DNA of 64,000 nucleotides from Chthonomonadaceae bacterium (GTDB lineage Bacteria; Armatimonadota; Chthonomonadetes; Chthonomonadales; Chthonomonadaceae). The first letter of the stretch is position 1; each line of letters opens with the position of its first letter. The notes under the pieces were generated by a model. It did not search any database and was not told where the DNA came from. It saw only the letters and a program-made list of their open reading frames with translations. Where the stretch lies: the NCBI GenBank assembly GCA_043762265.1, contig JAYUMV010000239.1, positions 2,142-66,141 of the forward strand. The letters are read 5' to 3'. The position numbers and the translations under genes are program-made. Shown here in pieces: positions 545 through 34,584 of the stretch.

Positions 545-2305
545 AGCGTTTCCCAGCAACAGCCCCTGCTCTCGACATTTACCCAACGCCCTCTCGAAAT
601 ACCCGCAGGCCTTTTCATACCTGCCAGCCTCTGCATGCGCGGAGCCTACGTTGTTGAGCAGGTTTGTAACAAGGCGCTCGTCTCCCAACCGCTCAGCCAG
701 TCGCCGACTTTGCTCCGCCAGCGCGCAGGCGCGATCAAAGTCGGCTACCTCTATCGCCACCATCCCCAGGTTGTTCAGCGCACGGACCGCCGCCGCATCG
801 TCTCCCGCCTGCTCGGACTCTGTCAGCGCGTGCTCGAACGCCTCCTGAGCCTAAAGGTAATCCTTCAGCATCGCATGCAGAGACCCCAGTGCGTTCCAGG
901 CCGTCCTGCGCTCTGGAGTGGCCTCTCCATAATGCCGTTGAAGCGCATCCCGCAGCTAGTCGCGCCCCTCCGCCCAGCCACCTCGATTGCACCAGTAGTG
1001 CATTAGCGCGTTCAATAGCGCCAGTTCGAGCTTCTGCCCGGTCACCGAGCGCCGACACCAAGCGACAGCGGCACGCATATTCTCCCGATCAATGATCGCC
1101 ACCGGGTAAGAACGCGCACGGGCGATGAGAGCTGTGACCAGCCGTTCATATCCCGCTTCGACTTCGAAGGGACTAAGCTGCTCCAGCCCGAAATCGCGCA
1201 ACGTCTCCAACATGTAAAAATGAAGCGAGGTTCCTGTCGGATCCTCTTGCTCGCGCGCGAGCAGAAACGAGGCTTCCCGTAGGCGCTGAAGCCTCTCTGG
1301 CACCGTGCGAGCATCGTCGGCCATGACGGCCGCCGTCTCCAGTGTCCACTCCCCGCGCAGCAGGCACAGCCGGCAGAAAAACGCCTGCAATTCCGGCTCC
1401 AGCAGCCGGTAACTCCACGCGATACACGTCTCCAGCGCCTGATGCCGGAGCGCCATTCCCTTGCGCCGTGCCCGCAGCAGTTCGAAACGTCGATCAAGCC
1501 GCGCCAGCATCTGCGCTGGCGAGAGCGTCTGCGCCCAGCTCGCCGCCAGTTCCAGCGCGAGCGGCAGCCCTTCCAGCCGTCGGCACAAAGCCGCAACACT
1601 CGCCGCATTGCGCACCGTCAACTGAAAATCCGCACACGCCGCCTGCGCCCGATCGACAAACAACTGTACGCTCGCGATCTCCAGCAGACATTCCGGGCTG
1701 TCCATGTGTTCCGGTGTAGAGAGAGGCGGCAACAGAAGTTCGCGCTCGCCATCCAGATTCAGCCGCTGTCGGCTCGTGGTCAGAATAGTAAGACGCGGAA
1801 GGCGGTGCAGAAGATCAGCGACGATCTCCGCGCCCTCTTCGGCGATCTGTTCCATGTTGTCAAGCACCAGCAGGCTGGAGCTTCCCCCCAGCGTAGACGC
1901 GATCACGGCCATCGGCTCGCGATCGGCTGGAGGATTCGGGCAGACTGCTTCTGCGATCCTCTCTGCCATGCGTTCGGGGGTATGGGTATCGGCCAGCCCT
2001 ACAAAACAGACGAACCGATCTGCGCCAGCACAGTCCCGCGCGGCTTCGATCGCAAGACGCGTCTTACCTGAGCCCCCGACTCCCAGCAATGTCACAACAC
2101 GCGGTCGCCAGCGCCGATGTATCGGCAGGAACTCTTCGCGTGCTGTCACCGCCTCTGTGGGCGGCTTCAACATAGCGCACAGACGAGCGAGCTCCTCCTC
2201 CCGACAAAAAAACGGCGTCAGTGCGAGGGGAAGGCGTACAGCAGAGTGGGCAGGGAGGGGACAAGGCGATTGTTGCGCTACGCAAGCCGATGCAGCCTCG
2301 GACAA
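545..2305 (-). pseudogene. NB-ARC/TPR regulator paralogue, decayed (no BTAD domain, two in-frame TAG codons, 3' end replaced by the IS66 remnant)
   Basis: One reading frame is roughly 70 % identical (by eye) to residues about 295–840 of the 3916..6723 protein (GGSGKTRLAIE Walker A; 38 identical aa AALCRRLEGLPLALELAASWAQTLSPAQMLARLDRRFE). TAG at 956-958 aligns with W and TAG at 851-853 aligns with Q of the paralogue. Confidence 0.8.
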
Positions 2306-2518: not shown

Positions 2519-2558
2519 TAAAAAATTCCCCGGTGGCCATCTCGTGGCGACCGGGGAA
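2519..2558 (-). terminator. Rho-independent terminator of the HAF/PEP-CTERM gene
   Basis: Minus strand: TTCCCCGGT-(15 nt loop)-ACCGGGGAA followed by TTTTTTAT, about 30 nt after the stop codon. Confidence 0.65.
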
Positions 2559-2589
2559 ATCATCTCGCGGACCTGCGCGACTGCGGCCC

Positions 2590-3762
2590 TTATTTTCGGC
2601 GCTTGCGTCGTACCGCGAAACCGATACCGGTCATGCTCATCCCCATCAGCAGGGCGACCGCGCCCGGCTCTGGTGTCGTCGCCACGGTCGCGTCCGGAAC
2701 CAGCAGGAAGGCACGTCTCTTACCAGCCGGATCGACACCGGTGCCGACGATATAGCCGTTGTCGGTAATGCCCGTCGCGTCCGTCAGCTGCCATCCCGTG
2801 CTGCTGGCGTCCAGGTAGTTGTTCAGATCGTACAGCGCGGTGTCGTAGTAGAAAGCCCGATTGGCGGACTGCCCGACCACATCTCCGAAATTGTCGATCG
2901 CGCGCCCCTGAGAGAAGAAGCCATCGAAGGAGCCGATGTTGGTCGCCGTACCGTCGATCAATCCGCCCACCGTGGTGCGAAAAGCGTGGCTGTACCCGGA
3001 CCCGTCGTCCGAATACCCCGTCACCTGGCCGAGATCGTTGATCGCATAGGCCGCGGAGGCGCCGCCCGCTCCCGCGAAGGTACCCAGATCCGAGCCGCTG
3101 TCGATAAGGCCTCCAGAGGTCGTGCGGAAGACATCCTGCTGAGCAGGGCTTCCGGACACAATGGAAAAGCCGACGATCTGATTGTTATTGTTGATGCCCT
3201 GTGCGGAGGAGTAGTCTCCGCTCAGCGCGCCCAGGTCCACCATCCCCCCATTGCTGTACCGGAAGCCGTGCTTCGTGAAGGTTCCATTCTTGTCCGAAGT
3301 ACCGGCGATGATTCCCGCCGCGTTGATTGCGTTGCCCTGAGACTGCAGACCTGTCGTCAGCGTCCCCAGATCGTGCATCGTTCCGTCGTAGAAGAACGCG
3401 TGGCGATAGTTCCCGGTTGCGTTTGCCCAGCCCGTGATCTGACCGAGGTCGTTTATCCCATATCCGATGGCGCCACGGCCGCCCAGAGTTCCGGTGTCAT
3501 GCATTGCGCCGTCGTAAAAGAACGACCGTGGATTCCCATCGTTGGGGATAAAGGAGAAACCCGTTACCTGTCCGCTCGAATTGACAGCCTCTGCTGTCGA
3601 GCCGCCGAAGACTCCCGAGCCACCCAGCGTGCCGAGGCCTATGGCCTGGTAGAGCGGTGGAGTCGCCAGAGCGGCTGGCGCCGCAGCCAGGGAGCCGGAG
3701 AAGAGGGCAAAAGTGAGGAGGAACCTGTGGCCGTGGAGGCTTCGATGGCGGTTGCGTACAAT
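2590..3762 (-). CDS. HAF-repeat extracellular protein with PEP-CTERM sorting signal (start codon unresolved)
   Basis: Repeated ..HAF(F/R)YDG.M.DLGTL..G.INDLGQ(I/V)TG.. units. C-terminus is TPEPGAVALLMGMSMTGIGFAVRRKRRK. The frame stays open upstream of the ATG at 3504 and encodes another repeat plus a signal peptide (RFLLTFALFSGSLAAAPAALA), with no in-frame ATG/GTG/TTG. Confidence 0.75.
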   Translation of the reverse strand: MVRNRHRSLHGHRFLLTFALFSGSLAAAPAALATPPLYQAIGLGTLGGSGVFGGSTAEAVNSSGQVTGFSFIPNDGNPRSFFYDGAMHDTGTLGGRGAIGYGINDLGQITGWANATGNYRHAFFYDGTMHDLGTLTTGLQSQGNAINAAGIIAGTSDKNGTFTKHGFRYSNGGMVDLGALSGDYSSAQGINNNNQIVGFSIVSGSPAQQDVFRTTSGGLIDSGSDLGTFAGAGGASAAYAINDLGQVTGYSDDGSGYSHAFRTTVGGLIDGTATNIGSFDGFFSQGRAIDNFGDVVGQSANRAFYYDTALYDLNNYLDASSTGWQLTDATGITDNGYIVGTGVDPAGKRRAFLLVPDATVATTPEPGAVALLMGMSMTGIGFAVRRKRRK

Positions 3763-3915
3763 GCGTATCGGGCGGCGTATAAGAATCAGACGGCAGCGAC
3801 GAGAATGGACAGTGCGAATATCGCAGATAGGCTCGCGTTGTGGTAAGGGAGAGGCTATTGCTCGTTGGTCTCCCGCAAATACGAAAATGGCGAATGGATA
3901 TAGGAAAAGGCTTCT

Positions 3916-6723
3916 ATGTTGGAAGAACCCTGGCGTGTGACCCTATGCGGCGGCTTATCCGCGCGCCAGGGCGCCCATAGCGTGTCGCGTTTTCGGACGC
4001 AGAAGACGGGACTTTTGCTGGCTTATTTGGCACTACATAGGGAGCGCACGCACGGGCGCGAGGAGTTGGCCGAGCTTTTCTGGCCCGAAAGCGCCGACTC
4101 GCTGCATAGTCTGAGGCTAGGCTTGGCCTCGCTGCGTCAGCAACTGGAGCCGCCGGGAGTGGGCAGGGGGCAGGTGTTGAGAGCGGATCGCAACCATGTC
4201 GGGCTGGTGTCCGGGACCGTGCGTACGGATGTGGCCGACTTTCACGCGGCAGTCGCGGAAGCGGCGCGCACGGTGGAGACGAAGCAGACGACGCAACGGC
4301 TCCGGGACGGCGTGGAGGCCATTTCGGGCGAACTGTTGCCGGGGAGCTATCTGGAGTGGGTGTTGCAGGCGCGTGAGATTCTGTCGGAGCAGTTGCAGAG
4401 CGCGCTCAAGGATCTGGTCGTGTTGCTGATTGCCCAGGAGGAGGCGGAGTCGGCGCTGCCGTTTGCGCTGCGACGGGTGCATCTAAACCCGCTGAACGAG
4501 GAGGCGCATCTGGCGGTGATGCAGTTGCTGCTGCGGTTGGAGCGCCCGGCCGACGTGCCACGGCAGTTCGAGCATCTGCGTGCGCTGTTAAAGGAGATCG
4601 GCATTGCGCCCTCCCTGCAGGCGCAAGAGTTGGCGGATGGCTGCCTCTCGTTTTCGGAGGATCCTGTTGTTTCGGTTCTTAGCTTCGGTGGATTGGGTGC
4701 GCGTCCGGTCGCCTCCCTGGTCGGCCCACTGCCGGCCACTCCCCCGTTCGCCCCTCCGCGTTTCCCTCCCGCGCCCTCCGTTTCAACCCGGCCTGCGGTT
4801 CGTCTGCCTCTGCCTCTTACCTCTTTCTTCGGGCGAGAGACGGAGTTAAGCCAAATACGCGCGTTGCTGGCGCCGCCTTCTGCCGCTAATGCGGATGGCG
4901 AAGAGCTTTTGTCAGGCGCGCAGCTCTGGCGCGCGCGTGTGCTGACCGTGCTTGGAACGGGAGGCTCGGGCAAGACACGACTGGCGATCGAGGTCGCACG
5001 CCTCTGCGCCGCCGACGCCGATAGGACGGTCTGCTTTGTAGAGTTGGTGGATGCGGACACCCCCGAACACATGCTGCAGGCGATTGCGGAGGCGGTCTGC
5101 CCGCATGCACCGGCCGATTGCCTGCCTTTGGAAGGGATTGTGAAGGCCCTTGGAGCAGGAGCGACTCTGTTGATCCTGGATAACATGGAGCAGCTCGTCG
5201 AAGAGGGCACGGAGGTCGTTGGGCGACTGCTGGAGCGGCTGCCGGACCTGACGATCCTGGTGACGAGCCGACTTCGCCTGAGCTTGGCTGGGGAACGCGA
5301 GTTTCCTCTGTTGCCGCTACCCACCCCTGAGCGCGCCGATGCGCCGGAGTGCCTGATGGAGTTTGCGAGCGTGCGGTTATTTGTGGACAGGGCGCAGGCG
5401 GCCCGCGCCGATTTTCAGTTGACCGCGCGGAACGCCGCCGCTGTGGCGGCGTTGTGCCGGCGGCTAGAAGGACTGCCTCTGGCGCTGGAGCTTGCGGCAA
5501 GTTGGGCGCAGACGCTCTCTCCGGCGCAGATGCTGGCGCGTCTGGATCGGCGGTTCGAGATGTTGCGCACGCGGCAGAGAGGCGTGGCCTCGCGGCATCA
5601 GGCGCTCGATGTGTGTATCGACTGGAGTTTTCGCTTATTGGATCCGGAGTTGCAGACTTTTTTCTGCAGGTTATGTCTGCTGCATGGGGAGTGGACCCTG
5701 GAGACGGCGGAGGCCGTCGTCGGGGAGAGAGATATTTTGGAGAAAGTGCAGCGGTTGCGGGATGCCTCTTTGCTGCTGGTGCGCGAGGCGCAAGACGCGG
5801 AGGGAACATCGCTGCGCTTTCACATGCTAGAGTCGTTACGCGAGTTCGGGCTGGAGCGATTGGAGCCGAAGGAGTGGGATACCGGACATGAGCGTCTAAC
5901 GCACTATTTTAGCGCCCTCTCCGGCCCAGACCCTTTTGCGACGGTCGATACCGAAAACGTGCGCGCAGTCGTCTCCTGGTGTCGCACTTCAGCGGTCGGG
6001 TATGCGCTGGAACTGGATCTGCTCAATGCGCTCATGCATTTCTGGGGCAATCGCGGTGGCTGGGTAGAAGGACGGGACTGGTTACAGGCGGCGCTGGAGC
6101 GCCATGCGGGGGAGGCCGTTCTTGCGCAGAGGAAGGCATGGAATACGCTCGGCTTTCTACATGCGATGCTGGGTGACGACGGCCAAGCCCGAGACTGTTT
6201 CGAACGCCTGCTGGCCGATTCGGAACGGGCGGAAGATCCGATGATGGCCGTGCGCGCCCTGAGCAACCTGGCGATTATTGCGATGAGAGCAGAAGACTTT
6301 TCACAGGGATGCGCGCTTATGGAGCAGAGTCTGTCTCAGGCGGAGAGACTCGGGGATGCGCGGATGATTGCCACGCAAAATTACAATTTGGGCGCAGCGT
6401 ACGTGGAACTGGGACACTATGAAGAGGCGCGCCGTTTGCTTGATCGGAGTCTGCTGCAGAGCCGTGAACAGAATTTTGCGGCTGGCGTCGCTCTCTGCCT
6501 CTGCAGCCTTGCTGAGGTGGCGCGAAAAGAGGGAGATAGCCTGGCAGCCCGGCAGATGCTTGAGGATAGTCTGGAGATATTTCGCTCTGTCGGCGAGCAG
6601 CCGCGTATCGCAGAGATGCTCGATCGCCTGGTAAAACTCTTGGAAGCTGAGGGGGATGTGCTCCAGGCACGTCTTTATGCCGAGGAGAGCGCTCTGCTGC
6701 AGACGCAACTGCGGGGTGAATGA
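3916..6723 (+). CDS. SARP/AfsR-like regulator: OmpR-type wHTH + BTAD + NB-ARC ATPase + TPR
   Basis: N-terminus WRVTLCGGLSARQG..VSRFRTQKTGLLLAYLA. BTAD-like helical region. Walker A GTGGSGKTRLAIE. C-terminal TPR units (NLAIIAMRAEDFSQG.., NLGAAYVELGHYEEA..). Confidence 0.9.
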   Translation: MLEEPWRVTLCGGLSARQGAHSVSRFRTQKTGLLLAYLALHRERTHGREELAELFWPESADSLHSLRLGLASLRQQLEPPGVGRGQVLRADRNHVGLVSGTVRTDVADFHAAVAEAARTVETKQTTQRLRDGVEAISGELLPGSYLEWVLQAREILSEQLQSALKDLVVLLIAQEEAESALPFALRRVHLNPLNEEAHLAVMQLLLRLERPADVPRQFEHLRALLKEIGIAPSLQAQELADGCLSFSEDPVVSVLSFGGLGARPVASLVGPLPATPPFAPPRFPPAPSVSTRPAVRLPLPLTSFFGRETELSQIRALLAPPSAANADGEELLSGAQLWRARVLTVLGTGGSGKTRLAIEVARLCAADADRTVCFVELVDADTPEHMLQAIAEAVCPHAPADCLPLEGIVKALGAGATLLILDNMEQLVEEGTEVVGRLLERLPDLTILVTSRLRLSLAGEREFPLLPLPTPERADAPECLMEFASVRLFVDRAQAARADFQLTARNAAAVAALCRRLEGLPLALELAASWAQTLSPAQMLARLDRRFEMLRTRQRGVASRHQALDVCIDWSFRLLDPELQTFFCRLCLLHGEWTLETAEAVVGERDILEKVQRLRDASLLLVREAQDAEGTSLRFHMLESLREFGLERLEPKEWDTGHERLTHYFSALSGPDPFATVDTENVRAVVSWCRTSAVGYALELDLLNALMHFWGNRGGWVEGRDWLQAALERHAGEAVLAQRKAWNTLGFLHAMLGDDGQARDCFERLLADSERAEDPMMAVRALSNLAIIAMRAEDFSQGCALMEQSLSQAERLGDARMIATQNYNLGAAYVELGHYEEARRLLDRSLLQSREQNFAAGVALCLCSLAEVARKEGDSLAARQMLEDSLEIFRSVGEQPRIAEMLDRLVKLLEAEGDVLQARLYAEESALLQTQLRGE

Positions 6724-6849
6724 AAAGGGAGCAGAGGGTTGGAGAAAGCGGCAATTGGAGGGATAGTTGTGACGCGACGGTTTCGGTGAGCCATTTTCGG
6801 GTTGTCTATACGGTGGAAACATCGGGGCTGCCGACACAGGCGCCGGGAA

Positions 6850-6902
6850 AGACGGTGCAGACGGACGCTTGAGACGCTGTTGAGACGATAGGTCACTATA
6901 AT
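6850..6902 (+). promoter_or_regulatory. Activator-type promoter: TTGAGACG x2 (11-nt register) - 9 nt - TATAAT, with two extra AGACGG copies upstream
   Basis: TTGAGACG at 6869-6876 and 6880-6887; TATAAT at 6897-6902. The hexamer 17 nt upstream (ACGCTG) is not -35-like. AGACGG at 6850 and 6859. Confidence 0.6.
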
Positions 6903-7039
6903 GGGTGTGTACGTGGGTGTTTCAGGCAGGCGGGCGCAGGGAGAACTGCCGGCACTATGTCTCTCCGTGCGCCGCGCGCCTGTTTGCGAACCCCTCGCTG
7001 CAATGACTTTCATTTCTGTTCTGGAAAGGGACAACACCC

Positions 7040-7762
7040 ATGTTCACGACACGCTCTTCTTCTCGCCGCGCCCTCTCGGCGTCGGCAAGCCTCCTGCTCC
7101 TCGGCGGCGCCCTGGTCTGCTCTGCACCGCAGGCCCATGCCGATCAGTACCTGGTCGGTGCCCTGCTGTTCGCCGCAGATTTTACAGGTGCGACCACCGC
7201 CTCCACTTCCTATCAGTACGATACGAATACTGGGAACGGGGCAAATACAACCGCGCTCAACTTCACTTTCAATGGGACGACCTTCGGCAAAGGCATCTCT
7301 CTTCTGCTGCCCAGCGGCAACAGTACCTTGTCGTTCGTTGAGAACGTGGTGACTCCAATCTCGCAGTTCAACGGAACCGCAGGAGATCTGGGGCTGTTCT
7401 TCTCCTCGACCAACACGCCGTACAACCCGGCCGCTGGGGCTCGAACGCCCGATCTGCTGGTATCCCGCGCTACGAATGGGTCCACGGCGTTCTTCTTCCC
7501 CACAGCGGGAACCTCGATCAACGACTATGTCTTTCCCGGCAATCGCGCTTACAGCGGAGCGACCAGCGCGACGCCGGGCTCACTTCCGATCACGGTGACA
7601 AGTTATAGTGTCGATAATAATGGGAGCGGCTCCGTGACTTTACGGGTGGGTGCTGCGGGAGCGGCCACGCCGGAGCCCGGCAGTATCGCCCTGCTTGTCG
7701 GAATGGGACTGACCGGCGGCGCCGTCGCACGACGCCGACGCAGAACCACGCTCGGCAGCTAA
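7040..7762 (+). CDS. Secreted PEP-CTERM protein, S/T/N/G-rich, function unknown
   Basis: Signal peptide MFTTRSSSRRALSASASLLLLGGALVCSAPQAHA. C-terminal TPEPGSIALLVGMGLTGGAVARRRRR. Confidence 0.85.
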   Translation: MFTTRSSSRRALSASASLLLLGGALVCSAPQAHADQYLVGALLFAADFTGATTASTSYQYDTNTGNGANTTALNFTFNGTTFGKGISLLLPSGNSTLSFVENVVTPISQFNGTAGDLGLFFSSTNTPYNPAAGARTPDLLVSRATNGSTAFFFPTAGTSINDYVFPGNRAYSGATSATPGSLPITVTSYSVDNNGSGSVTLRVGAAGAATPEPGSIALLVGMGLTGGAVARRRRRTTLGS

Positions 7763-12963: not shown

Positions 12964-13464
12964 TTAATTGCGTGGTGGGAAGATGCCCAATAGGGCGATG
13001 ATAAAGTTAAGGGTCAGGAAGGGTTGACGATTTTCGTGTCCTTGACCCGCCCCGGCGCTCGATACGCTCCCGGACTCCATCAGCGTATCGGCCGTGGAGT
13101 CGTAGAGGGTGCGGCGCGGCGGAGCTGCAAGCAAAGATCCTGCCGGTGACACGGTGTTCGCTGCTGCCGAGGAAGCCATGATCGTATGGCTATGCGTGGG
13201 CATTGTGCTCTCCGTCAGAACGACCGACTCCGCGCCCCCCTGCGTCCCGTAAGGCATGTTAGTGTCGAAATGCATCGGCACGCGGCTGCGCAGATCCGGA
13301 AGCGCGAACGTCTGTCTTCCGTCGCCGCCATAGGTGGTCCCAAGCAGGGAAAACAGAGCCGTATTCTGGCTTATCGAGAGTAACTGACCGTTGCACAGTG
13401 CCCAGTTTTGTGGAATAGTGTTGCCGGAGATCATTTTGATCTCTCCCAAGAATGGTTCTGCCAT
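12964..13464 (-). CDS. Phage-tail-collar-domain protein (MdpB-like), copy 2
   Basis: PFLGEIKMISGNTIPQNWALCNGQLLSISQNTALFSLLGTTYGGDGRQTFALPDLRSRVPMH ... HENRQPFLTLNFIIALLGIFPPR. 11-nt gap to the next gene. Confidence 0.9.
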   Translation of the reverse strand: MAEPFLGEIKMISGNTIPQNWALCNGQLLSISQNTALFSLLGTTYGGDGRQTFALPDLRSRVPMHFDTNMPYGTQGGAESVVLTESTMPTHSHTIMASSAAANTVSPAGSLLAAPPRRTLYDSTADTLMESGSVSSAGAGQGHENRQPFLTLNFIIALLGIFPPRN

Positions 13465-13476
13465 GGTAATCTCCTT

Positions 13477-13998
13477 TTACTGGTGACTCGGGTAGATGCC
13501 GGACGTGCAGATGATGAAATTGAGCGCAAGAAAAGGCGATCTGTTTTCGTGCGCCTGATTGCTCCCTCGTGAAACGAGGCTGTTTGCATTCATCGCGACG
13601 AGATTGGTTGGCGAGTGGTAGATATTGCCCAGGCTGCTATTCGCTTGACTCAAAGCCATCGTCGTCGGATTCGCCTGGTTCGCGGCATTGGGAGCCGCCA
13701 TCAGTGTGTGCGTGTGTGCGGCCTGGTCCGCTGTCAGAGCGACTCCTGCCTGCCCGTCTGCTTCGCCCAGAGTGTACGCAGTCAGTCCTGTGCCAGCTCC
13801 GCATTGGAGGGGAACTCGCTCGCGCAAATCCGGTAGGGCGAAAGTGTTAATACCGTTTCCGCCGTAGGCGGTGCCCAGAATGCTGTACAGGCTGGCGTAG
13901 GTAGTCGTACTGAGAAGCTGACCGTTGCAGAAGGTCCAGCCTCTAGGCTCAAAGTTAAAGGGTACGAGTCTGATTTCGCCGATAAATGCTTCTGACAT
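13477..13998 (-). CDS. Phage-tail-collar-domain protein (MdpB-like), copy 1
   Basis: AFIGEIRLVPFNFEPRGWTFCNGQLLSTTTYASLYSILGTAYGGNGINTFALPDLRERVPLQ ... HENRSPFLALNFIICTSGIYPS. 12-nt gap to the next gene. Confidence 0.9.
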   Translation of the reverse strand: MSEAFIGEIRLVPFNFEPRGWTFCNGQLLSTTTYASLYSILGTAYGGNGINTFALPDLRERVPLQCGAGTGLTAYTLGEADGQAGVALTADQAAHTHTLMAAPNAANQANPTTMALSQANSSLGNIYHSPTNLVAMNANSLVSRGSNQAHENRSPFLALNFIICTSGIYPSHQ

Positions 13999-15151: not shown

Positions 15152-17779
15152 TTAACGAGAGGCGGTGGCCGGTGGGTAGGAGGCGTCGCCGTGGGTGTGG
15201 TGCCAGAGCGCTTCGGTCAACAACTCGGGATCGGCGCGGTCCGGAGCCGAGAAGTCGAGGAGCGCGGAGACGGCGGCCCAATGGCGCGGTGTGCCCGCCA
15301 GTTTCTTGAGCGGAGGGTTGATCAGGTTGAGGGCGATTATGTTCTTGTGCGCTGTATAGGGCTGATAGTCGGCTTTTTCCTGGAAGACACTGCGCATCGG
15401 GATCGCCGCTGCATCGAACTGGTTGAGCGGAGGAATGTTGAGGATCTGCTCGATGGTGCGAATCATGTTCAACTGATTGAAGTTGGCGCTGAAGATCTGG
15501 CCGCGCTTGTTGAACGGACTGACGATCAGAGCTACCGTACGATGGCCCTCTACATGGTCGAGGCCGCCCTGCGCATCGTCTTCCACCACGAACACCACAG
15601 TCGGCTCATCGTGCCAGTATTTCTGGCTGTGTGAAAGGGTATCGATCAGTTTGCCGACGGCGAGATCGTTGTCGGCAATGTCCGATTCGGGCGTATAGCT
15701 GCCGGGTCGGGTGCCCGAGGTGTGGTCGTTCCCGAACCAGATGGTCGTCAGATCCGCGAGCGGTTTCCCGCTGTCGAGGTCTTTCACGATCCGCTCATAG
15801 TGCGCTACATCGGCATTTCGGTCCGCAGTGACCGGAACCTCTTTGTCGTAGTCCGTGTCGGAGTGGGGCTTGATGCTTGGCAGCGGGTCGAACTCGCCGT
15901 AGTTGTGGAACGAATGTCCGTTGTCCATCGCGGCCTGCCAGAGGAACTTATTGCCCGCATAGACCAGAGGATCTGTGCCGCAGCAGGGATAGGAGCGCGG
16001 ATAGTTGTTCATCGCCCGCTCGGAATAGTCGTCGGCGAACGCCTCGTTGAGCCAGTGGTGCCCGTCGGCGCTGATGGCGCCGCTGCAGTAGAAGTTGTCG
16101 AACAGGCCGAACTCGCGGGCGAGCGCATGGTGGTTGGGCGTGATCTTCTCCCCGAACATCAGCAGACTGGGGTCGCCGCCGATATGCCCGGCAGGCACCG
16201 CAACGTCCGCAAAAAGCTGGTCGTAGGTGCGGTTCTCTTTAATGACCAGGACGACATGCTTAAACCTCGACCAGAAGGCGTCGCGCTTGCCGCTCAAAGC
16301 CTCGGCCATCCGATCAAAATGATCGTAGCGATTCACGGTCGTCGTCAACTGTGCCAGCGCCGTCCTGTCGGGGATGGGAATCACGCCCAGACTGCCGAGC
16401 ACCGAATAGACACTGTGGCCGGTCAGACTGTCGGATTGTATCGCCCCGCCAGGGCCTGCCTTCGGCGTCGCGGCTCCCTCCCCACGCGGGCGAGTGACCG
16501 TAGCGCCGAGCGAGCCGATGCCCTTACTGTTCGCGACATAGAGGCTGGCGCCGTCCGGGCTCAGGAGAACGCCGAGCGGAAACCAGGCCGTCGGGATCAG
16601 CCCCACGATTTTCGTCGCGAGCGCCTTACCGCCAGCGGTGGCGTCCAGAGCGAACACGGCCACGGCGTTGTCGCCGCCCAAAGTGACGTAGAGGGCGCTG
16701 CCATCCTGGCTGACGGCGATCCCGTTCGGACTGCTGGCCGCGAGTTTGCCGGGGGCGGGACTGGTAGCGATGGTCTCCACCACCGTATCGCTGCCGATGC
16801 CGATCACCGAAATAGTGTCGTTGTTCGCATTGGCGACGAAGAGACGACTGCCATCCGGTGAGAACGTCATATCGGTCGGCTGCAGGCCGACCGGGATCGT
16901 TTTGGAGACGGCATGTTCGGCATCGGCGGCGATCTGCGCGGTGGCGATTACGGAGACCGTGCCTGTCGAAGCCTTGTAGGATTTGGGATCGACCACTACC
17001 GGATCGTCTTCATCCAGCGTGTCCCCTGCTTCCGGCGTTTTGCCGCCCCGGTTGGCGACATAGATCTTGCCGCCGTCCTGACTCACGACGACTCGTTCCG
17101 GCGAACTGCCCACAGGAACTTCGGTATAGGTCGCGCGGCCGGTCTCCGCCTCATACGTGGAGAGATCGACGGCAGCGAGAGTCCCGTTGTTGAAAAGCGT
17201 CACGTACAGGGTCTTCTCATCGGGAGAGAGCGCCAGTCCGCAGGGCTGCGAGTCCTTTGCATTCTTGTTCGGCTCTATACGCGACTTCAAAGCGAGGCCT
17301 ATCGGCTTGGACGCTGTGGCTTTGCCGCTCGCATCGAAATGCGTCACGAACACGACCCCGGCAGCATCTGCCGTGCCGCCCTGCGGCGCCGCCTGCGCTT
17401 TCCCGGTGGTGTAGAGCGTCCGTCCGTCCTTCGACCAGGCGATTCCGCCTAAGTTGTGGGAGCCCGGGACGAGATCCGGCAGAAACTGCTGGGTCTGGGT
17501 GTCGAACAGACGCGTCCCTCGCTGACACATCAGCGCCAGTATTTTGCCGTCGGGCCGCAGCGCCATATCGATGGGCCGCCCCTCGAAGGAAATATTTTTG
17601 CCAGCGGGACTGAGCGTCTGCCCGGTTGGGACGAAGTAGGTGCCATCGGTCTGCTTGCCGATCGTGGACATATCGGGTGATTTTGCTGCGGGCTTCGCCG
17701 CCAGACGTATTCCGCCATAGAGCAGACCGGCAGCCGGAAGCAGCAACATAAGATGACGAGTAGTGCGCGAAAGAGGCAT
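15152..17779 (-). CDS. Fusion protein: YncE/YVTN-type beta-propeller + phosphoesterase (PlcC/AcpA) family domain
   Basis: N-terminal half has repeated ..SPDG..LYV(A/T)N.. propeller blades. C-terminal half starts HVVLVIKENRTYDQLFAD (the ENRSFD-like signature of the phosphoesterase family). N-terminal signal/anchor. Confidence 0.85.
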   Translation of the reverse strand: MPLSRTTRHLMLLLPAAGLLYGGIRLAAKPAAKSPDMSTIGKQTDGTYFVPTGQTLSPAGKNISFEGRPIDMALRPDGKILALMCQRGTRLFDTQTQQFLPDLVPGSHNLGGIAWSKDGRTLYTTGKAQAAPQGGTADAAGVVFVTHFDASGKATASKPIGLALKSRIEPNKNAKDSQPCGLALSPDEKTLYVTLFNNGTLAAVDLSTYEAETGRATYTEVPVGSSPERVVVSQDGGKIYVANRGGKTPEAGDTLDEDDPVVVDPKSYKASTGTVSVIATAQIAADAEHAVSKTIPVGLQPTDMTFSPDGSRLFVANANNDTISVIGIGSDTVVETIATSPAPGKLAASSPNGIAVSQDGSALYVTLGGDNAVAVFALDATAGGKALATKIVGLIPTAWFPLGVLLSPDGASLYVANSKGIGSLGATVTRPRGEGAATPKAGPGGAIQSDSLTGHSVYSVLGSLGVIPIPDRTALAQLTTTVNRYDHFDRMAEALSGKRDAFWSRFKHVVLVIKENRTYDQLFADVAVPAGHIGGDPSLLMFGEKITPNHHALAREFGLFDNFYCSGAISADGHHWLNEAFADDYSERAMNNYPRSYPCCGTDPLVYAGNKFLWQAAMDNGHSFHNYGEFDPLPSIKPHSDTDYDKEVPVTADRNADVAHYERIVKDLDSGKPLADLTTIWFGNDHTSGTRPGSYTPESDIADNDLAVGKLIDTLSHSQKYWHDEPTVVFVVEDDAQGGLDHVEGHRTVALIVSPFNKRGQIFSANFNQLNMIRTIEQILNIPPLNQFDAAAIPMRSVFQEKADYQPYTAHKNIIALNLINPPLKKLAGTPRHWAAVSALLDFSAPDRADPELLTEALWHHTHGDASYPPATASR

Positions 17780-17853: not shown

Positions 17854-17887
17854 AGATTATCGCACAGGCATGTTAAGAAACCGTTAA
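17854..17887 (-). promoter_or_regulatory. Weak candidate activator-type promoter: TTAACGGT-ttc-TTAACATG-9 nt-TAATCT
   Basis: Same 8+3+8+9+6 geometry as the other three sites, but the repeats share only TTAAC. Overlaps the nominal regulator start at 17888. Confidence 0.25.
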
Positions 17888-20800
17888 ATGCAGAGGCACA
17901 ACCCCGTGGCTTGTGAGGGCTCTCAGGTTAGAACAGCAGGATTTGAGGGTGGCAGAGTCGCAATGAGAGGAGCGAATCATTATCCCCACGGAGCCGCGAA
18001 CACATTGGACACAGGGCAACAGACAGAAGTCATATGGCGGATCGAACTCCTGGGAGGCGTGTCTCTTTCACGTGGGGGGGAACAACGTCCTCCCTTTAAA
18101 ACGCGCCGTATGACACGCCTGTTGGCGCGTCTCGCCTGTTTTCCGGACAGGGCGCATGCCCGTGACATCCTGGCAGAAGAGTTGTGGCCGGAAGAGGACC
18201 CGGAAGCGATTCGGGAGCGGTTTCGGCAGACCCTGGCGCTATTGCGGCGCGAGTTGGAGCCTGCGGACGTTTCGGCCGGAAGCGTTCTGATTGCGGACCG
18301 CTCCACGGTGCGTTTAGCTCCTCGATCCTTCACCACCGATATTGCGGATTTTACCGCAGCGCTCCGCATGGCCGCCACCGAGACCGATCTTGTTCGGCAG
18401 ATCGCGCCATTGCGGCAAGCGGTCACGCTCTATCGCGGCGATCTAATGCCGGGGTTCGATGAAGACTGGATACAGACCGAGCGCCTGCATCTGGCGGAAC
18501 GCTCCCGGCAGGCGCTGGTCCGCCTGACCATGCTGCTCGCCTCGGGAGGGCAATGGGAAGAGGCCATCGAAACGGCGCGTCGGACCATCACCGCCGATCC
18601 CCTGCATGAGGAGGCGCACTGCATGCTGATCCGCCTCTTCGCGCAGTCGGGGCGTATGGCGGATGCGCACCGGCAGTACGAAGCGTTGGAACGGCTCCTG
18701 AAGGAGCAGATGAACCTGGAACCCGCTGCGGCAACGCAGGATCTCATGCGGGAGTTGCGCAGCGGACTCACGTTGGCCTCTTTGCTTTCGGTCTCCCCGC
18801 AACCTCCAGTCGTCGTAGCCCCGCTGGAACCGACTCTTCCAGCACAGACTGTCGCTCCTCCCACAGCCGTCCTGCCACATCCGATGACACGTTTCTACGG
18901 TCGTGAGGCGGAAATAGAACAACTGACAGCGCTGCTCTCACCTCAAGGTGTCCCCTCCAACGCGCCGCCGCCGCTCGTCACTTTGACTGGGCAGGGGGGA
19001 GCCGGGAAGACGCGTCTCGCGCTGGAGGTCGCCCGGCGACTGGCCCCGTCCTACGCGCAGGCGGTCTGGTTTGTGCCGCTTGCCGATGTCCTCTCCCCCG
19101 AACGTATAGGGGATGCGGTCTGTGAGACGCTGGAACTAGCGCGTTCCGGACAGTCCGATCCGATCCAACAGGCCATCGCGTTTCTGCGTGGATATCCGAA
19201 CGCGCTTTTGATCTTCGACAATTTCGAACATCTCCAGGAGGAGGGAACGCCGGTGCTGCAGGCGCTGCGTCACCGGCTGCCGCACCTCGCCTGTCTGGTC
19301 ACCTCGCGCCATAAACTCAATCTGGACGGGGAGCGCGATCTGACTCTCTCTCCACTCGCCACTCCGGAGGGGGAGCAGAGCAGCGAACAGTTGCAGAGTT
19401 ATCCGAGTGTGCAGCTTTTCCTGGACCGTGCGCAGGCCGCACGCTACTCTTTCGCCCTGACGCCAGCGAATGCAGATGCCATTGCGACGCTGGTGCAGCA
19501 GCTCGAAGGGCTTCCACTGGCGATCGAACTGGCGGCAGCCTGGGCCGCGACACTCACGCCGGAACAGATCCTGCTGCGTCTGTCGCATCGCTTTGAACTT
19601 CTCGTCAGTCGGCGTAGAGACGCTCCGCAGCGGCATCGCAGTCTGCAAGCGGTGCTGGAAGGCAGCGTTCAACTGTTGCCCCCCTGGCTGCAGAAGCTCT
19701 ATGCGCAACTCTCTGTCTTTCGCGGGGGATGGACTCTGGAAGCGGTAGAACAGGTGGCGCGGGTGCCCACGACGACCAGCGTCGGAACTCTGCACTATAT
19801 GGAAGGGCTGGCGCTGCTTCAGGAGCGCTCCTTCGTGCACTCGGAGGAGGCGGACGCGGAGATGCGCTACTCGCTTCTGGAATCCTTGCGAAAGTTCGGC
19901 GCGGAGCAGTTGACCGCAGAAGAGCAACGGAGTCTGGCGCAGCGGCATGCCGCTTTCTATCTTGTGCTGGCAACGGAGGCCCAGGCACATCTGCGCACAC
20001 CGGCAGAAAAACAGTGGTTCGACCGCCTGGAGCTAGAGAACGAGAACTTGCGTGCGGCTCTGGGGTGGGCGCTCGCAAACGAGCCGGATACCGCCTTGCA
20101 GATGACGGCGCGTCTTCCTCACTTCTGGATGACGCGTGGTTTTGCGCGGGAGGGCAGCGATTGGCTGCATCGGGCGCTGCGGTGTCCCGCAGAAGTCTCG
20201 ACGGTACGCGCGGAAGCGCTCAATGGGTTGGCGCTGATGAAGTTCTCCCTGAGCGAGTACGATGCCGGTAAGGCGTGGGCGCTGGAGAGCCTGAAGGCGC
20301 GGCGAGAGTTGGAGGATCCGCAGGGAACCGCGAAGACCCTCAACACCCTGGGAGCGATTTTGATGGAACAGGGCGACTATCGTGAAGCGCAGACCTGCTA
20401 TGAGGAGTGCCTCGGTCTGCACCGCCTGACCGGCCATCGCATGGGCGAATCGATCGTGCTGGCCAACCTGGGCAATCTGGTCTATGGCCAGGGAGAGTAC
20501 GCCATGGCCTGCAACTACTACGAGGCGTGCCTGGAAGCACGACGCGCGCTGGGCGATCGGCGTGGGATCGCGGCGGCCCTCGACTACATGGCGCGGGCCG
20601 TGCGAGAGCAAGGCGACTACGGGAGGGCCTGCGATCTGCATGCCGAGAGTCTGGACATGCGGCGCGAACTCAACGACAAACAGAGCGTGGCCCTTTCGTT
20701 GAATCATATGGCCTTCGCGAAAATCCTGATGGGAGAAAAGGTTGTGGCCCGCACTCTGCTGGAAGAGAGCCTGGTCTACTCTCGGGAGATCGGGGATAAA

Positions 20801-21178
20801 GCAGGAGTCGCGGAAGCGTTCTCTCTTTTAGGAGAACTGGCACGTCAGGACAATGCCGGAACGAGTCCCCGGGGGTACTGGTCGGAGAGCCTGACGATCT
20901 GGCAGGAGATGGGAGATAGAGCCAGCACGGTCGCCCTCCTGGAATCCTTTGCAGGACTGGTGCATTCCGAAGGCCAAAGCGATGCGGCAGCGCAACTGCT
21001 CGGCTTTGCCGAGGCCCTGCGCACCGAAATCTTCTCTCCCCTGCGACCCTCCAGCCTCCCTCGCTACGCACAGACCCTGGATGCTGTCCGTGCCGCCCTG
21101 GGGTCCGAAGCGTTCGAGGCTGCTTGGACCGTAGGGCGCTCTCTTACCCTTGAACAGGCGATTCGCCTGGTTCTCTAA
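17888..21178 (+). CDS. SARP/AfsR-like regulator: wHTH + BTAD + NB-ARC + long TPR array
   Basis: VIWRIELLGGVSLSRGG..FKTRRMTRLLARLA. Walker A GQGGAGKTRLALE. About 8 TPR units at the C-terminus. The true start is probably downstream (ATG 17963 or TTG 18005), because the paralogues start about 5 aa before the WR(I/V) motif. Confidence 0.9.
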   Translation: MQRHNPVACEGSQVRTAGFEGGRVAMRGANHYPHGAANTLDTGQQTEVIWRIELLGGVSLSRGGEQRPPFKTRRMTRLLARLACFPDRAHARDILAEELWPEEDPEAIRERFRQTLALLRRELEPADVSAGSVLIADRSTVRLAPRSFTTDIADFTAALRMAATETDLVRQIAPLRQAVTLYRGDLMPGFDEDWIQTERLHLAERSRQALVRLTMLLASGGQWEEAIETARRTITADPLHEEAHCMLIRLFAQSGRMADAHRQYEALERLLKEQMNLEPAAATQDLMRELRSGLTLASLLSVSPQPPVVVAPLEPTLPAQTVAPPTAVLPHPMTRFYGREAEIEQLTALLSPQGVPSNAPPPLVTLTGQGGAGKTRLALEVARRLAPSYAQAVWFVPLADVLSPERIGDAVCETLELARSGQSDPIQQAIAFLRGYPNALLIFDNFEHLQEEGTPVLQALRHRLPHLACLVTSRHKLNLDGERDLTLSPLATPEGEQSSEQLQSYPSVQLFLDRAQAARYSFALTPANADAIATLVQQLEGLPLAIELAAAWAATLTPEQILLRLSHRFELLVSRRRDAPQRHRSLQAVLEGSVQLLPPWLQKLYAQLSVFRGGWTLEAVEQVARVPTTTSVGTLHYMEGLALLQERSFVHSEEADAEMRYSLLESLRKFGAEQLTAEEQRSLAQRHAAFYLVLATEAQAHLRTPAEKQWFDRLELENENLRAALGWALANEPDTALQMTARLPHFWMTRGFAREGSDWLHRALRCPAEVSTVRAEALNGLALMKFSLSEYDAGKAWALESLKARRELEDPQGTAKTLNTLGAILMEQGDYREAQTCYEECLGLHRLTGHRMGESIVLANLGNLVYGQGEYAMACNYYEACLEARRALGDRRGIAAALDYMARAVREQGDYGRACDLHAESLDMRRELNDKQSVALSLNHMAFAKILMGEKVVARTLLEESLVYSREIGDKAGVAEAFSLLGELARQDNAGTSPRGYWSESLTIWQEMGDRASTVALLESFAGLVHSEGQSDAAAQLLGFAEALRTEIFSPLRPSSLPRYAQTLDAVRAALGSEAFEAAWTVGRSLTLEQAIRLVL

Positions 21179-21221: not shown

Positions 21222-21287
21222 ATATCACGGTAAACTCCGCATATATCACGCCTTTGTCATGAAGATGTTACGTTGGAAGTGTATCCT
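21222..21287 (+). promoter_or_regulatory. Activator-type promoter: ATATCACG / ATATCACG / ATGTTACG (21–22-nt spacing) - 9 nt - TATCCT
   Basis: Repeats at 21222, 21243 and 21265; TATCCT at 21282-21287. Lies inside the ORF-track start extension (21259), which supports the ATG at 21337 as the real start. Confidence 0.5.
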
Positions 21288-29955: not shown

Positions 29956-30525
29956 ATGGGCTTCGCGCGGGCGACAGCAAGGCAGATCGATGCGGTCGAG
30001 GAACTGGTGAATCAGTGCCGGGAGGATCTGGCGGCACGGCAGATTTTTCAGTGGGACGCGAGCTATCCCAACCGAGCTTACTTCGAGGGTGCGTTGGCGG
30101 CCGGAAGTCTGTTCGTTCTCACGGACGCAGATCGCGTAACCGGTGTCGTAGTTTTGGATGAGGGGCAGGCATCCGAATGGAGCGCGGTGGACTGGCAGGA
30201 AACGGAGGGACCGATCCTGGTCGTCCATTCGTTCGCGGTTCTGCTGTCGTCGCAAGGGAAGGGCTACGGAGCCACCATGATAAGCTGTTGTGAAGCCTTC
30301 GCTAGAGATGCGGGCTATAAGAGCATGCGCCTGGACGCTTTCTCGGAAAACGAATCGGCGTTGCGCTTCTATGAACGAAACGGGTATAGCTTTCAAGGGG
30401 AGATCGAACTCGCCTTCAAACCAGCGGGGCATCAACGCTACTACTGTTACGAGAAGCGCCTTATCGATTCTACAGAACAACCGACGTTCGGTCGCCCGAT
30501 TGAGACGCCCCACCCCAAATCGTAA
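29956..30525 (+). CDS. GNAT family N-acetyltransferase
   Basis: FAVLLSSQGKGYGATMISCCEAFA...ALRFYERNGY. SD GAGGAAGGGG. Confidence 0.85.
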   Translation: MGFARATARQIDAVEELVNQCREDLAARQIFQWDASYPNRAYFEGALAAGSLFVLTDADRVTGVVVLDEGQASEWSAVDWQETEGPILVVHSFAVLLSSQGKGYGATMISCCEAFARDAGYKSMRLDAFSENESALRFYERNGYSFQGEIELAFKPAGHQRYYCYEKRLIDSTEQPTFGRPIETPHPKS

Positions 30526-30744
30526 ACGAGAGACGGCGCTGGGCGGTCAGAAGACGCGAACGATGATGACAGACACTTTGACCTGGACCTCCCCCTTCGG
30601 ATGGATCGTCAACCTGGCAGACATCCTGTTTTTGAAAGCCCACATGCGGCGATTTCTGAACGAGCGTGATTCCAACCTGAAACAGATCGCAGAATCAGCG
30701 AATGGGTGAGGTGTCGTGACTTGCAAGAGTGGGAAAGCCAGACA

Positions 30745-30778
30745 TAGAAAAGCCGCTCGGTCCATTGAACTGAGCGGC
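30745..30778 (-). terminator. Rho-independent terminator of the lipoprotein gene
   Basis: Minus strand: GCCGCTC-(13 nt)-GAGCGGC followed by TTTTCT. Confidence 0.55.
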
Positions 30779-30821
30779 CGATGAGCGGCCTTTTGCTGCC
30801 GCTGCTGCGAGAGTGACAAGA

Positions 30822-31367
30822 TCAGGTAGTCCCCTTGGTCAGCGTGATCGTGCCGGAATTGGTGGTGCCGTCGGTGTTGTGAACGATAACGTTCAGCGTC
30901 ACGCTCTGGGAGGTGGATGGTCCTCCGTAGTTGATGCTGCTGACGGTGGGAGAGATGTTGGTGATGAGGCCGGTAAACAGGCCCGATTTGGCGATGGTGA
31001 GATTGGCCACAGTCGCCGTGCCGGAGGGGCCGGTAACGGTGATCGCATCGTTGTTGTAAGAGCCTGTCAGGGCTGTCTGGGAGCCCGCGAAGCCGAACTG
31101 ATTGCCGCTGAGGGCGATGGTTATGGTCGCCGCCTTCGTCGTGGGGTTCAGGGTGATGTTCATCGTAGAGGTGCCGCTGGTGCCGTCGACGTCGTGCCAT
31201 TGGCCGCTCCAGGTACCGGCGTAGGCCGTGGCAAAGCTGGTGGTGTTCACGGTCCCGTTGCCACTGCCTCCACAGCCTGTAAGCAAGGATGCTGCGACGA
31301 CGGCCAGGCAGGCGAACAGAGTAAATGCCATGCGTTGGGACGATCCTGGAAAATTGAGGTGTTTCAT
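30822..31367 (-). CDS. Small S/T/N/G-rich lipoprotein, function unknown
   Basis: Lipobox SLLTGCGGSG. SD AAGGAG. Confidence 0.8.
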   Translation of the reverse strand: MKHLNFPGSSQRMAFTLFACLAVVAASLLTGCGGSGNGTVNTTSFATAYAGTWSGQWHDVDGTSGTSTMNITLNPTTKAATITIALSGNQFGFAGSQTALTGSYNNDAITVTGPSGTATVANLTIAKSGLFTGLITNISPTVSSINYGGPSTSQSVTLNVIVHNTDGTTNSGTITLTKGTT

Positions 31368-31433
31368 AGTCTGGTGTCTCCTTAACGAGGGCGTAAGCGG
31401 TGCCTACGGCCCGGTTTAGTATTGGCTCCATCA

Positions 31434-34500: not shown

Positions 34501-34584
34501 GGTACGAAAGCGATCTACCATCTGCTCGCCCTGTCGGGCGATAAAACCACCCAGTAGTTGAATTCTCCAGCGCTCCGTGAGCAT
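31504..34584 (-). CDS. SARP/AfsR-like regulator: wHTH + BTAD + NB-ARC + TPR
   Basis: MLTERWRIQLLGGFIARQGEQMVDRFRTRKGGEMLAALA. Walker A GPGGNGKTRLIIE. C-terminal TPR array. Confidence 0.9.
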   Translation of the reverse strand: MLTERWRIQLLGGFIARQGEQMVDRFRTRKGGEMLAALALHPHCTLPREELLLRLWPDEDPEAARNRLRVELAALRRQFQAPGQAAPPLIEADRFLVRLHPEAFLIDTAEFEQGLAQAGRASERPEQIRLLAQAVDLYRGDLLPGYDADWIAAERERLASLHQEALRRLIRRLAHERDFDQAIAYAQRALQADAWNEEAHFDLIRLFVAVGQPSAALRQYATLEQTLREQFDAKPTAAARNFIQQVRDRLGHGAALRVGVTADAPTLAPPTPVVPTVPIPSLPVELPVRLTRFFGREREQARVAALLQTNRLITLTGPGGNGKTRLIIETAALLQAQFAGGVRFVYLGNLLDIGQLPDALRQTLRLPAQGGIAPLNQVIAALSAAPSLLILDNFEHLVEQGASLVQTLLAAVPSLTLAVTSRRVLGIAGEQEFPLAPLATPTRETTPEALTTFASVRLFLDRAQAVRPDFQLTPRNAEAIATLCRYLEGIPLAIELAAARIRTMTPAQMSDRLVPRLELLVNPRADKDARHRSLRTAIAWSVQMLSPETRRFFARLAVFQGGWDAKEAAEVCLPRDEEDGSRSVLLEPARWSAFDLLERLVSESLLIAEERSGAMRFRMLETLREFAWEQLPPWEQERIQYTHALCLMKLVEEIAPRLNGPELGDLLKRLEEDHANLTAALTWCIEAPTADLSPSPTEIGLRIVGSLWRFWDMRGSTREDRQFTKQLLERAAPGLDPQVLARAYVTAAGLAKSESAYPQALAHQEQALLYFRQAGNLEGIGLTLSNIGTYYSEQGKLKEALRYYEAGLAILRELGITWRIATGLNNIGSLQTSMGDFEASQVNLQEALNLRKQIGDRGAIWSTLNNLGALAHYREEYAEAIKVHEEALMIARELEDRYATGISLVNLGENYLSLQDYTASSRCFTESLQLHRAVGSRFGQAHALEGFALHAVLTEIPERAGVLMGAAQALRHKMQSEKSSLEAELFDDAFLPVATDPRFLDGLKRGRSLPLEAAISLALQSKNESA

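Follow-up and report, generated by a model that had tools for sequence, protein, structure and literature searches.

SARP activators have been treated as a speciality of the actinobacteria that is tied to antibiotic production. A stretch of 64,000 nucleotides (nt) from a Chthonomonadaceae bacterium (phylum Armatimonadota; contig JAYUMV010000239.1; hereafter the window) raises the question of whether a promoter of the same kind is at work in the Chthonomonadales, where the same architecture and geometry are seen. Here, two identical 8-nt words and a TATAAT hexamer lie between the gene of an AfsR-like regulator (regulator 1), which stops at 6723, and the gene of a PEP-CTERM secreted protein, which starts at 7040; this position, given in an earlier reading of the sequence (the original prediction), is confirmed. 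That reading had also proposed that the regulator upstream, with its winged helix-turn-helix (wHTH) and BTAD domains, serves a direct-repeat operator replacing the -35 hexamer. The proposal is backed by the domains and fold of the protein, by conservation over 13 loci, by co-variation of repeat word and recognition helix, and by the geometry of the AfsR site. It is thus quite probable, judging from sequence, structural modelling and analogy, that the site is a genuine, conserved SARP-box and the activator-dependent promoter of the PEP-CTERM gene 7040-7762, served by the regulator encoded at 3916-6723. Such an answer is favoured because the sites strictly adjoin regulators of this type, both repeats change in concert, the word matches the helix, and the phase to the -10 is fixed without a -35. 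Binding, the start site, and activation rather than repression are what we infer from the sequence and from known relatives.

Layout, rarity and conservation of the repeat

The two perfect 8-mers of the original prediction can be read directly on the plus strand. The upstream repeat core, TTGAGACG, occupies 6869-6876, and the downstream core, again TTGAGACG, occupies 6880-6887, which places them in an 11-nt register with the 3-nt gap CTG between them (6877-6879). The downstream core is followed by exactly 9 nt, ATAGGTCAC (6888-6896), and a consensus -10 hexamer, TATAAT (6897-6902), as had been claimed. The upstream core would be the site of one SARP protomer at about -40 to -33 and the downstream core that of a second at about -29 to -22. 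The open reading frame (ORF) of the regulator stops 146 nt before the first repeat. The absence of a -35 hexamer also held: a consensus scan of 6600-7100 gave no sigma-70-type -35/-10 pair. The TTGAGA hexamers within the repeats stand 22 and 11 nt from the -10 and are unusable, and the hexamers at 16-18 nt from it read CGCTGT, ACGCTG and GACGCT.

The original prediction likened this layout to known SARP sites. At SARP target promoters, direct repeats are 11 or 22 bp apart and the 3' repeat lies 8 bp from the -10 (PMC10936776). In the complex of AfsR at afsS, a pair of SARP protomers lies side by side on adjacent 11-bp repeats (-40..-19); the first 8 bp of either repeat are contacted and the last 3 are not. 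The protomers hold sigma region 4 in lieu of a -35 contact, and the -10 of the scaffold ends at -7 (PMC10936776). Counted from these numbers, the downstream AfsR core falls at -29..-22, with 9 nt to a -10 at -12..-7. The 8+3+8+9+6 arrangement of the window is the same geometry. As in a SARP-box, the direct repeats are spaced 11 bp, the box lies over the -35 position, no usable -35 is present, and the 3' repeat ends about 8 bp from the -10 (9 nt when counted from the 8-bp core).

The word by itself is unremarkable, as three copies of TTGAGACG are present in the window and 2.35 are expected. The lone copy at 30500, a single one at the 3' end of an acetyltransferase-like ORF, fits chance. Exact 8-mer pairs at a period of 11 occur only three times in the whole 64 kb. 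The full layout (exact 8-mer pair, period 11, 9 nt, TAnnnT) is observed twice against an expectation of 0.02 per window, and is therefore not due to chance; the expectation comes from 200 first-order Markov simulations, none of which reached two sites. Both full-layout sites of the window follow an AfsR-like gene at a distance of at most 150 nt. A strict scan (at least 7/8 repeat matches, period 11, 9 nt, TAnnnT) was run over 602 kb, comprising the window and the comparison loci with both strands counted. It gave 14 sites, and all 14 are within 450 nt of one or the other end of a SARP-STAND gene; sites of more distant regulators, in L009 and L014-L016, are among them. A relaxed scan found 1.37 matches per kb near the ends of such genes versus 0.063 per kb elsewhere.

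The comparison set consisted of the window and 12 loci encoding relatives of regulator 1, the regulators being 50-100% identical. Regulator scans of metagenome and genome contigs gave two close orthologues, and most of the loci came from exact look-ups. The layout of 8-mer, 3 nt, 8-mer, 9 nt and TAnAnT is ungapped in 13/13 loci, and the 11-nt period is held in each. Over these loci, the mean information content is 1.53 bits per position in repeat 1, 1.67 in the gap, 1.59 in repeat 2, 0.87 in the 9-nt spacer and 1.67 in the -10 hexamer; the 40 nt upstream of the repeats reach 0.37. The spacer is invariant in length and has G at its position 4 in all 13 loci. The -10 occurs as TATAAT, TATACT, TAGAAT or TACAAT, with T1, A2, A4 and T6 invariant. 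In repeat 1, positions 2, 7 and 8 are constant, while positions 4-6 change most where words differ. Both repeats change in concert across the loci; TTGTGACG, for instance, is found twice, and TGTTGCG two or three times. The gap reads yTG in 13/13 loci; the matching positions are uncontacted in AfsR.

A PEP-CTERM gene follows the operator in 12/12 loci with the same orientation. The gene beyond it is different or convergent in other loci, and the unit is therefore the regulator with one target gene.

The regulator and its repeat words

Regulator 1 (3916-6723, plus strand) is a protein of 935 amino acids (aa), described here through Pfam, profile searches and an AF2 model. Its domain order is an OmpR-type winged helix (residues ~1-100), BTAD (104-240), an NB-ARC/AAA STAND NTPase (~306-570) and TPR repeats (~730-925). 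The recognition helix, as modelled, comprises residues 62-77. The BTAD domain directly follows the wHTH, as in SARPs, and is well recognised by Pfam (PF03704, 45.4 bits, cut-off 22.1, residues 104-240). NB-ARC falls just under its cut-off (22.8 versus 23.5 bits), while AAA_22 (29.6 bits, cut-off 27) and TPR_12 pass theirs. A NOD (NB-ARC/AAA) with TPR at the C-terminus is what marks a large SARP, and the second stretch aligned with AfsR covers AfsR residues 490-975.

Profiles were needed because a single-sequence phmmer search of the N-terminal 300 aa against the PDB gave no match at E<=0.01. With a profile of regulator 1 and its relatives, full-length AfsR (8k60) is the best natural-protein match (E=4e-46). 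The N-terminal profile aligns with residues 28-361 of AfsR (8k60) in the PDB at E=1e-33; EmbR follows at 1e-12. The AF2 model of residues 1-270 has a pLDDT of 91.5 and the strand/helix order of a wHTH; the OmpR-type winged helix at the N-terminus is thereby recognised from both the profile alignment and the model. In a Foldseek search of this model against the PDB, AfsR and EmbR were the only matches at E<=0.001 (TM 0.66-0.74), the AfsR matches being the SARP domain within AfsR transcription complexes. In architecture and predicted fold, regulator 1 is a 'large SARP'. The window carries three such regulators (3916-6723, 17888-21178 and 31504-34584). The actinobacterial occurrence by which SARP distribution is stated (PMC10972967) does not extend to this host, which belongs to the Chthonomonadales of the phylum Armatimonadota.

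By hand-mapping on the profile alignment, R67-L68-G69-L70-A71-S72-L73-R74-Q75 of regulator 1 corresponds to R87-T88-Y89-A90-S91-R92-L93-R94-K95 of AfsR. The DNA-contact residues of AfsR are Q48, W74, R87, T88, R92, R94 and K95; Q29, W56, R67 and R74 are kept in regulator 1. The variable helix residues L68, A71 and S72 align with T88, S91 and R92 of AfsR, of which T88 and R92 make base contacts in its complex (PMC10936776). The contact positions at which regulator 1 differs from AfsR are those varying along with the repeat word.

This co-variation can be followed through the loci. Eight of them have the helix LR[L/M][A/G]L[A/G]S and the word TTGAGACG, with a single mismatch in one repeat of L026 and L031. 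LRMALVS is found with TTGTGACG in both repeats (L030, L032). LRTALTT is accompanied by TTTTAACG/TTGTAACG in L029, a paralogue from the same metagenome-assembled genome as L003, which itself carries TTGAGACG. LRMALPS goes with TGTTGCG in L033 and L028. Of these two, L033 is paralogous and lies in the same genome as the window (contig JANYEZ010000006); its site at 4324-4379, downstream of the regulator, has three in-phase repeats: TTGTTGCG-ctg-CTGTTGCG-ttg-CTGTTGCG-9 nt-TATAAT. In L028, the TGTTGCG site (2242-2275, minus) is upstream of the regulator and on the opposite strand, at a divergent gene for a lactonase-type beta-propeller. The same word and helix are thus found in L033 and L028 on different sides, and the word therefore tracks the regulator, and not the target, position or side. 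Furthermore, words were predicted from the helix for three loci before these were fetched (TTGTGACG for P0014, TGTTGCG for P0018 and TTGAGACG for P0010), and 3/3 carried the predicted word. A fourth locus fetched alongside, P0005, had no prediction attached.

Distant SARP-STAND genes (30-40% identity; Armatimonadaceae, Armatimonas, soil metagenomes) show the layout of repeat, 9 nt and -10 with other words. The word CCTCACG at 4961 of L009 (minus) and the word GATAGA of L014-L016 (minus strand, just upstream of the regulator) both face a divergent gene. In L008 (Armatimonadaceae), about four CCTGACG-like repeats lie directly past the regulator gene, at ~7505-7590.

Two side observations belong to these loci. 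Gene calling splits the L033 regulator into two ORFs (769 + 158 aa), and it may be frameshifted. In L028, it is panD, and not a PEP-CTERM gene, that lies downstream of the regulator.

Proposed mechanism and rival explanations

In the mechanism that we propose, the gene 3916-6723 encodes an AfsR-like STAND regulator whose NB-ARC/TPR part would be switched on by a signal. Two N-terminal winged-helix/BTAD domains would then bind the adjacent TTGAGACG words, one helical turn apart and on the same DNA face. The words would take the place of the -35, the downstream one stopping 9 nt short of TATAAT. The SARP dimer would hold sigma region 4 and RNA polymerase, a process termed 'sigma adaptation' and solved for AfsR at afsS. 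Transcription would start near 6909 and cross a conserved leader of 131 nt before it reaches the PEP-CTERM gene 7040-7762. Together, the regulator gene and the promoter that it serves would make up a two-gene module, duplicated within genomes, with an own word for each recognition helix.

The closest known system is AfsR/afsS of Streptomyces coelicolor (PDB 8k60, 8hvr; PMC10936776, PMC11301090). It shares the wHTH-BTAD-NOD-TPR order, the 11-bp period, the 8+3 bp division, the 9 nt to the -10, the box over the -35 position and a poor or absent -35. However, the SARP domains are only ~23% identical, the AfsR word is CGTT(T/C)ATCG, and the -10 is weak in afsS and consensus in the window. The phyla differ as well (Actinomycetota versus Armatimonadota), and AfsR acts on afsS and antibiotic control, whereas the target here is the adjacent PEP-CTERM gene. 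AfsR is also under the control of Ser/Thr kinases; nothing points to such control for regulator 1. Small, pathway-specific SARPs such as ActII-ORF4, DnrI and RedD, with their heptameric repeats, share the direct repeats of 11/22 bp and the 3' repeat ~8 bp from the -10, and they sometimes have three repeats, like L033. They differ in that they consist of the SARP domain alone and lie within antibiotic clusters, whereas regulator 1 is a 935-aa STAND protein with a single target. EmbR of Mycobacterium tuberculosis (PDB 2fez), the second-best structural match (TM ~0.7), shares the wHTH and BTAD fold but carries an FHA domain where regulator 1 has NB-ARC/TPR. Outside the actinobacteria, GSU1771 of Geobacter sulfurreducens has a SARP-type wHTH/activator-domain arrangement and affects cell-surface and biofilm genes (PMC10599522). 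Unlike regulator 1, it carries a receiver domain at its N-terminus and lacks a STAND module, and no repeat-type operator of the window's layout was found described for it.

The layout alone would also suit another winged-helix activator. Class II activators of the PhoB/OmpR type are winged-helix proteins that bind head-to-tail on 11-bp direct repeats replacing the -35, a layout shared by Pho boxes and common in the OmpR/PhoB superfamily. The repeats could serve a protein such as an OmpR/PhoB-type response regulator, with the SARP gene a mere neighbour; the afsS repeats of Streptomyces are bound by PhoP as well as by AfsR (PMC10972967). We consider this improbable. Every one of the 14 strict matches in 602 kb adjoins a SARP-STAND gene, the word changes with the helix of that gene, even between paralogues of one genome and at a divergent-side site, and no conserved response-regulator gene is present in the examined neighbourhoods. 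Regulator 1 itself is without a receiver domain and has BTAD and a STAND module instead, and its predicted fold matches AfsR and EmbR rather than PhoB/OmpR-type response regulators. Another explanation keeps the regulator and changes its action, in that it would bind the repeats as a repressor, or act on its own 3' end or on read-through transcription. A site at -40 to -22 could block RNA polymerase, and no terminator is predicted between the regulator stop codon and the site. We give this little credence, since the fixed 9 nt to a conserved -10 without a -35 are what an activator-dependent promoter needs and a repressed one does not, and both the BTAD domain and the AfsR precedent speak for activation. 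The variant involving the 3' end is further countered by L028, where the word is found ahead of the regulator, at a divergent promoter. A third explanation, a repeat arisen by chance or slippage duplication, or a pair of TTGAGA -35-like hexamers, with no regulator-specific function, is barely credible. TTGAGA is one base off TTGACA, and the window shows no over-representation of the 8-mer taken singly, but the spacers do not permit its use, the full layout is hardly expected even once per window, and both copies are conserved and change in concert over 13 loci. The comparative data contradict it.

Several observations nevertheless weigh against a SARP-box served by regulator 1. Trans_reg_C in the regulator is below its Pfam threshold (21.7 versus 26.2 bits). 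Three of the hand-mapped AfsR contact residues differ (T88 to L68, R92 to S72, K95 to Q75), and base reading therefore cannot be transferred from AfsR. An orthologue with 71% identity, L024, stands next to an IS66 transposase without the site, and the third AfsR-like gene of the window (17888-21178, regulator 2) has weak candidates only. The co-variation amounts to four helix/word classes in related sequences, with few independent events. P0005 (LRMALGS), which has M at the T88 position, still carries TTGAGACG; position 71 therefore fits better than 68, and the 'code' is not simple. Moreover, SARPs are described as confined to actinobacteria (PMC10972967), so that their working with the RNA polymerase of an Armatimonadota host is an assumption.

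As for what is new, the promoter type and the protein family are already known, and database pipelines label such proteins SARP-family activators. A recent review states that SARPs are 'exclusively found in actinobacteria' (PMC10972967). SARP-like proteins outside this group are not new in themselves; in a literature search, GSU1771 of Geobacter was the only non-actinobacterial SARP-like regulator found discussed, and no paper of the library searched linked Armatimonadota with SARP or BTAD. The new elements are a conserved operator of exact AfsR geometry, its PEP-CTERM target and the paralogue-specific words.

If confirmed, the promoter would widen the range and roles of SARP-type 'sigma adaptation'. 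It would provide a first regulator-to-target link in the barely studied phylum Armatimonadota, and tie a signal-sensing STAND ATPase to the expression of PEP-CTERM cargo. The natural variants (TTGAGACG, TTGTGACG, TTGTAACG, TGTTGCG and TTGTAATG) could then be used to study how SARP helices read DNA and to obtain orthogonal promoters. A broader proposal, which we offer tentatively and rate a little below an even chance, is that Armatimonadota hold an expanded set of AfsR-like STAND regulators, each wired by an 8-bp word of its own to a single promoter next to it, with the helix residues at the T88/S91/R92 positions of AfsR co-diversifying with word positions 4-6. If it were true, these pairs would form a natural library of mutually insulated SARP/operator pairs and a readable recognition code for SARP winged helices. 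'Sigma adaptation' at -40..-19 would then be an old cross-phylum mechanism, here switching variable PEP-CTERM surface proteins in response to separate signals.

Target gene, leader and other sites of the window

The target gene (7040-7762, plus) encodes a secreted protein of 240 aa with a signal peptide and the sorting tail TPEPGSIALLVGMGLTGGAVARRRRR. TIGR02595 (PEP_CTERM) matches it with 22.2 bits against a cut-off of 16. It has the features by which PEP-CTERM/exosortase substrates are recognised, i.e. a C-terminal PEP motif, a transmembrane helix, a basic cluster and an N-terminal signal peptide. The mature domain is of at least four unrelated-looking types across loci (L025, L026, L029-L035 and the window's own 7040-7762). 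What these loci conserve is the promoter, the leader, the signal peptide and the PEP-CTERM tail, as if cargo were swapped within a fixed expression cassette. In L024, the IS66-family transposase is found immediately upstream of the regulator, and an unrelated secreted protein of 270 aa takes the place of the downstream operator, leader and PEP-CTERM gene; the 120-nt spacer in front of it contains two ACGTCTAT words 47 nt apart.

The 5' leader is predicted to span 131 nt (6909..7039, plus), with a start near G6909 placed by setting the -10 at -12..-7. Its part at ~6909-6985 is nearly invariant in 11/12 same-orientation loci, including paralogues with different words. A long hairpin of about 20 bp is possible at ~6930-6976; the palindrome at its tip is CTGCCGGCAG, and TGTCGACA in L033. 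With RNAalifold, a long hairpin came out for sets of 8 and 12 leaders, yet compensatory pairs numbered only 1-2, which does not demonstrate an RNA structure. In Rfam, 6700-7100 has no match at E<=1, i.e. the leader does not belong to a described RNA family, and no further copies of it were found in the window. Either an RNA element or a further protein site could lie in the conserved leader, which may add a second control at the level of RNA or DNA.

The second full-layout site of the window lies on the minus strand at 31468-31435 and reads TTGTAATG-atg-TTGTAATG-ggcgtgctg-TAGAGT, in an identical layout. It is placed between the stop of the AfsR-like regulator 3 (31504-34584, minus) and a lipoprotein gene (30822-31367, minus). 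An ORF called at 30547-31431 (minus) was rejected as a gene, its translation being R/H/Q-rich and looking like that of a wrong frame; the real gene there is the lipoprotein ORF. A further exact repeat of period 11, the third in the window, is TGAGCGGCC-ga-TGAGCGGCC at 30771-30799, in the intergenic stretch past the lipoprotein gene. This pair has no -10 at 9 nt and may belong to a terminator-like hairpin.

Regulator 2 probably starts ~44 codons past 17888. Near its start, on the minus strand at 17854-17887, the weak candidate TTAACGGT-ttc-TTAACATG-9 nt-TAATCT faces the divergent gene 15152-17779 (minus), which encodes a beta-propeller/phosphoesterase. Past its end, at 21222-21265 (plus), is the other weak candidate, in which ATATCACG is found twice with a 21-nt period, followed by 9 nt and TGAAGA, upstream of a secreted-protein gene starting near 21337.

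Two smaller elements had been named around regulator 1. The AGACGG copies upstream of the repeats are present, as described, at 6850-6855 and 6859-6864, but the orthologous loci keep neither their sequence nor their position. Nor do they share the 11-nt register of the core: the offsets are 13 and 9, although the distance between the copy at 6850 and the AGACG within the first repeat is 22 nt. As further repeats (6850..6864, plus) they were rejected, and are probably not part of the element. A weak minus-strand site had likewise been suggested upstream of the divergent gene (GGGAGACC, 3868-3875). As a second operator, GGGAGACC-9-TAGCCT was discarded, for it reads GGGAGGCC in both close orthologues (L002 and L003).

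The ~160 nt upstream of the regulator 1 start (3750-3915) are well conserved in L002 and L003, and contain GCGTATAA, GACGGCAGCGACGAGA and the inverted repeat GGGAGA...TCTCCC. Presumably, the promoter or leader of the regulator itself is what is conserved here. It is the 304-aa ORF 2590-3504 (minus), with a faint DUF3466 match, that is divergent from regulator 1, and not the overlapping 437-aa ORF 2533-3846 (plus). Further away, an NB-ARC/AAA ORF of 449 aa without a SARP domain lies at 956-2305 (minus). Two tandem phage tail collar genes (PF07484) are located at 12964-13998 (minus), and in L001 a third, partial one comes after them.

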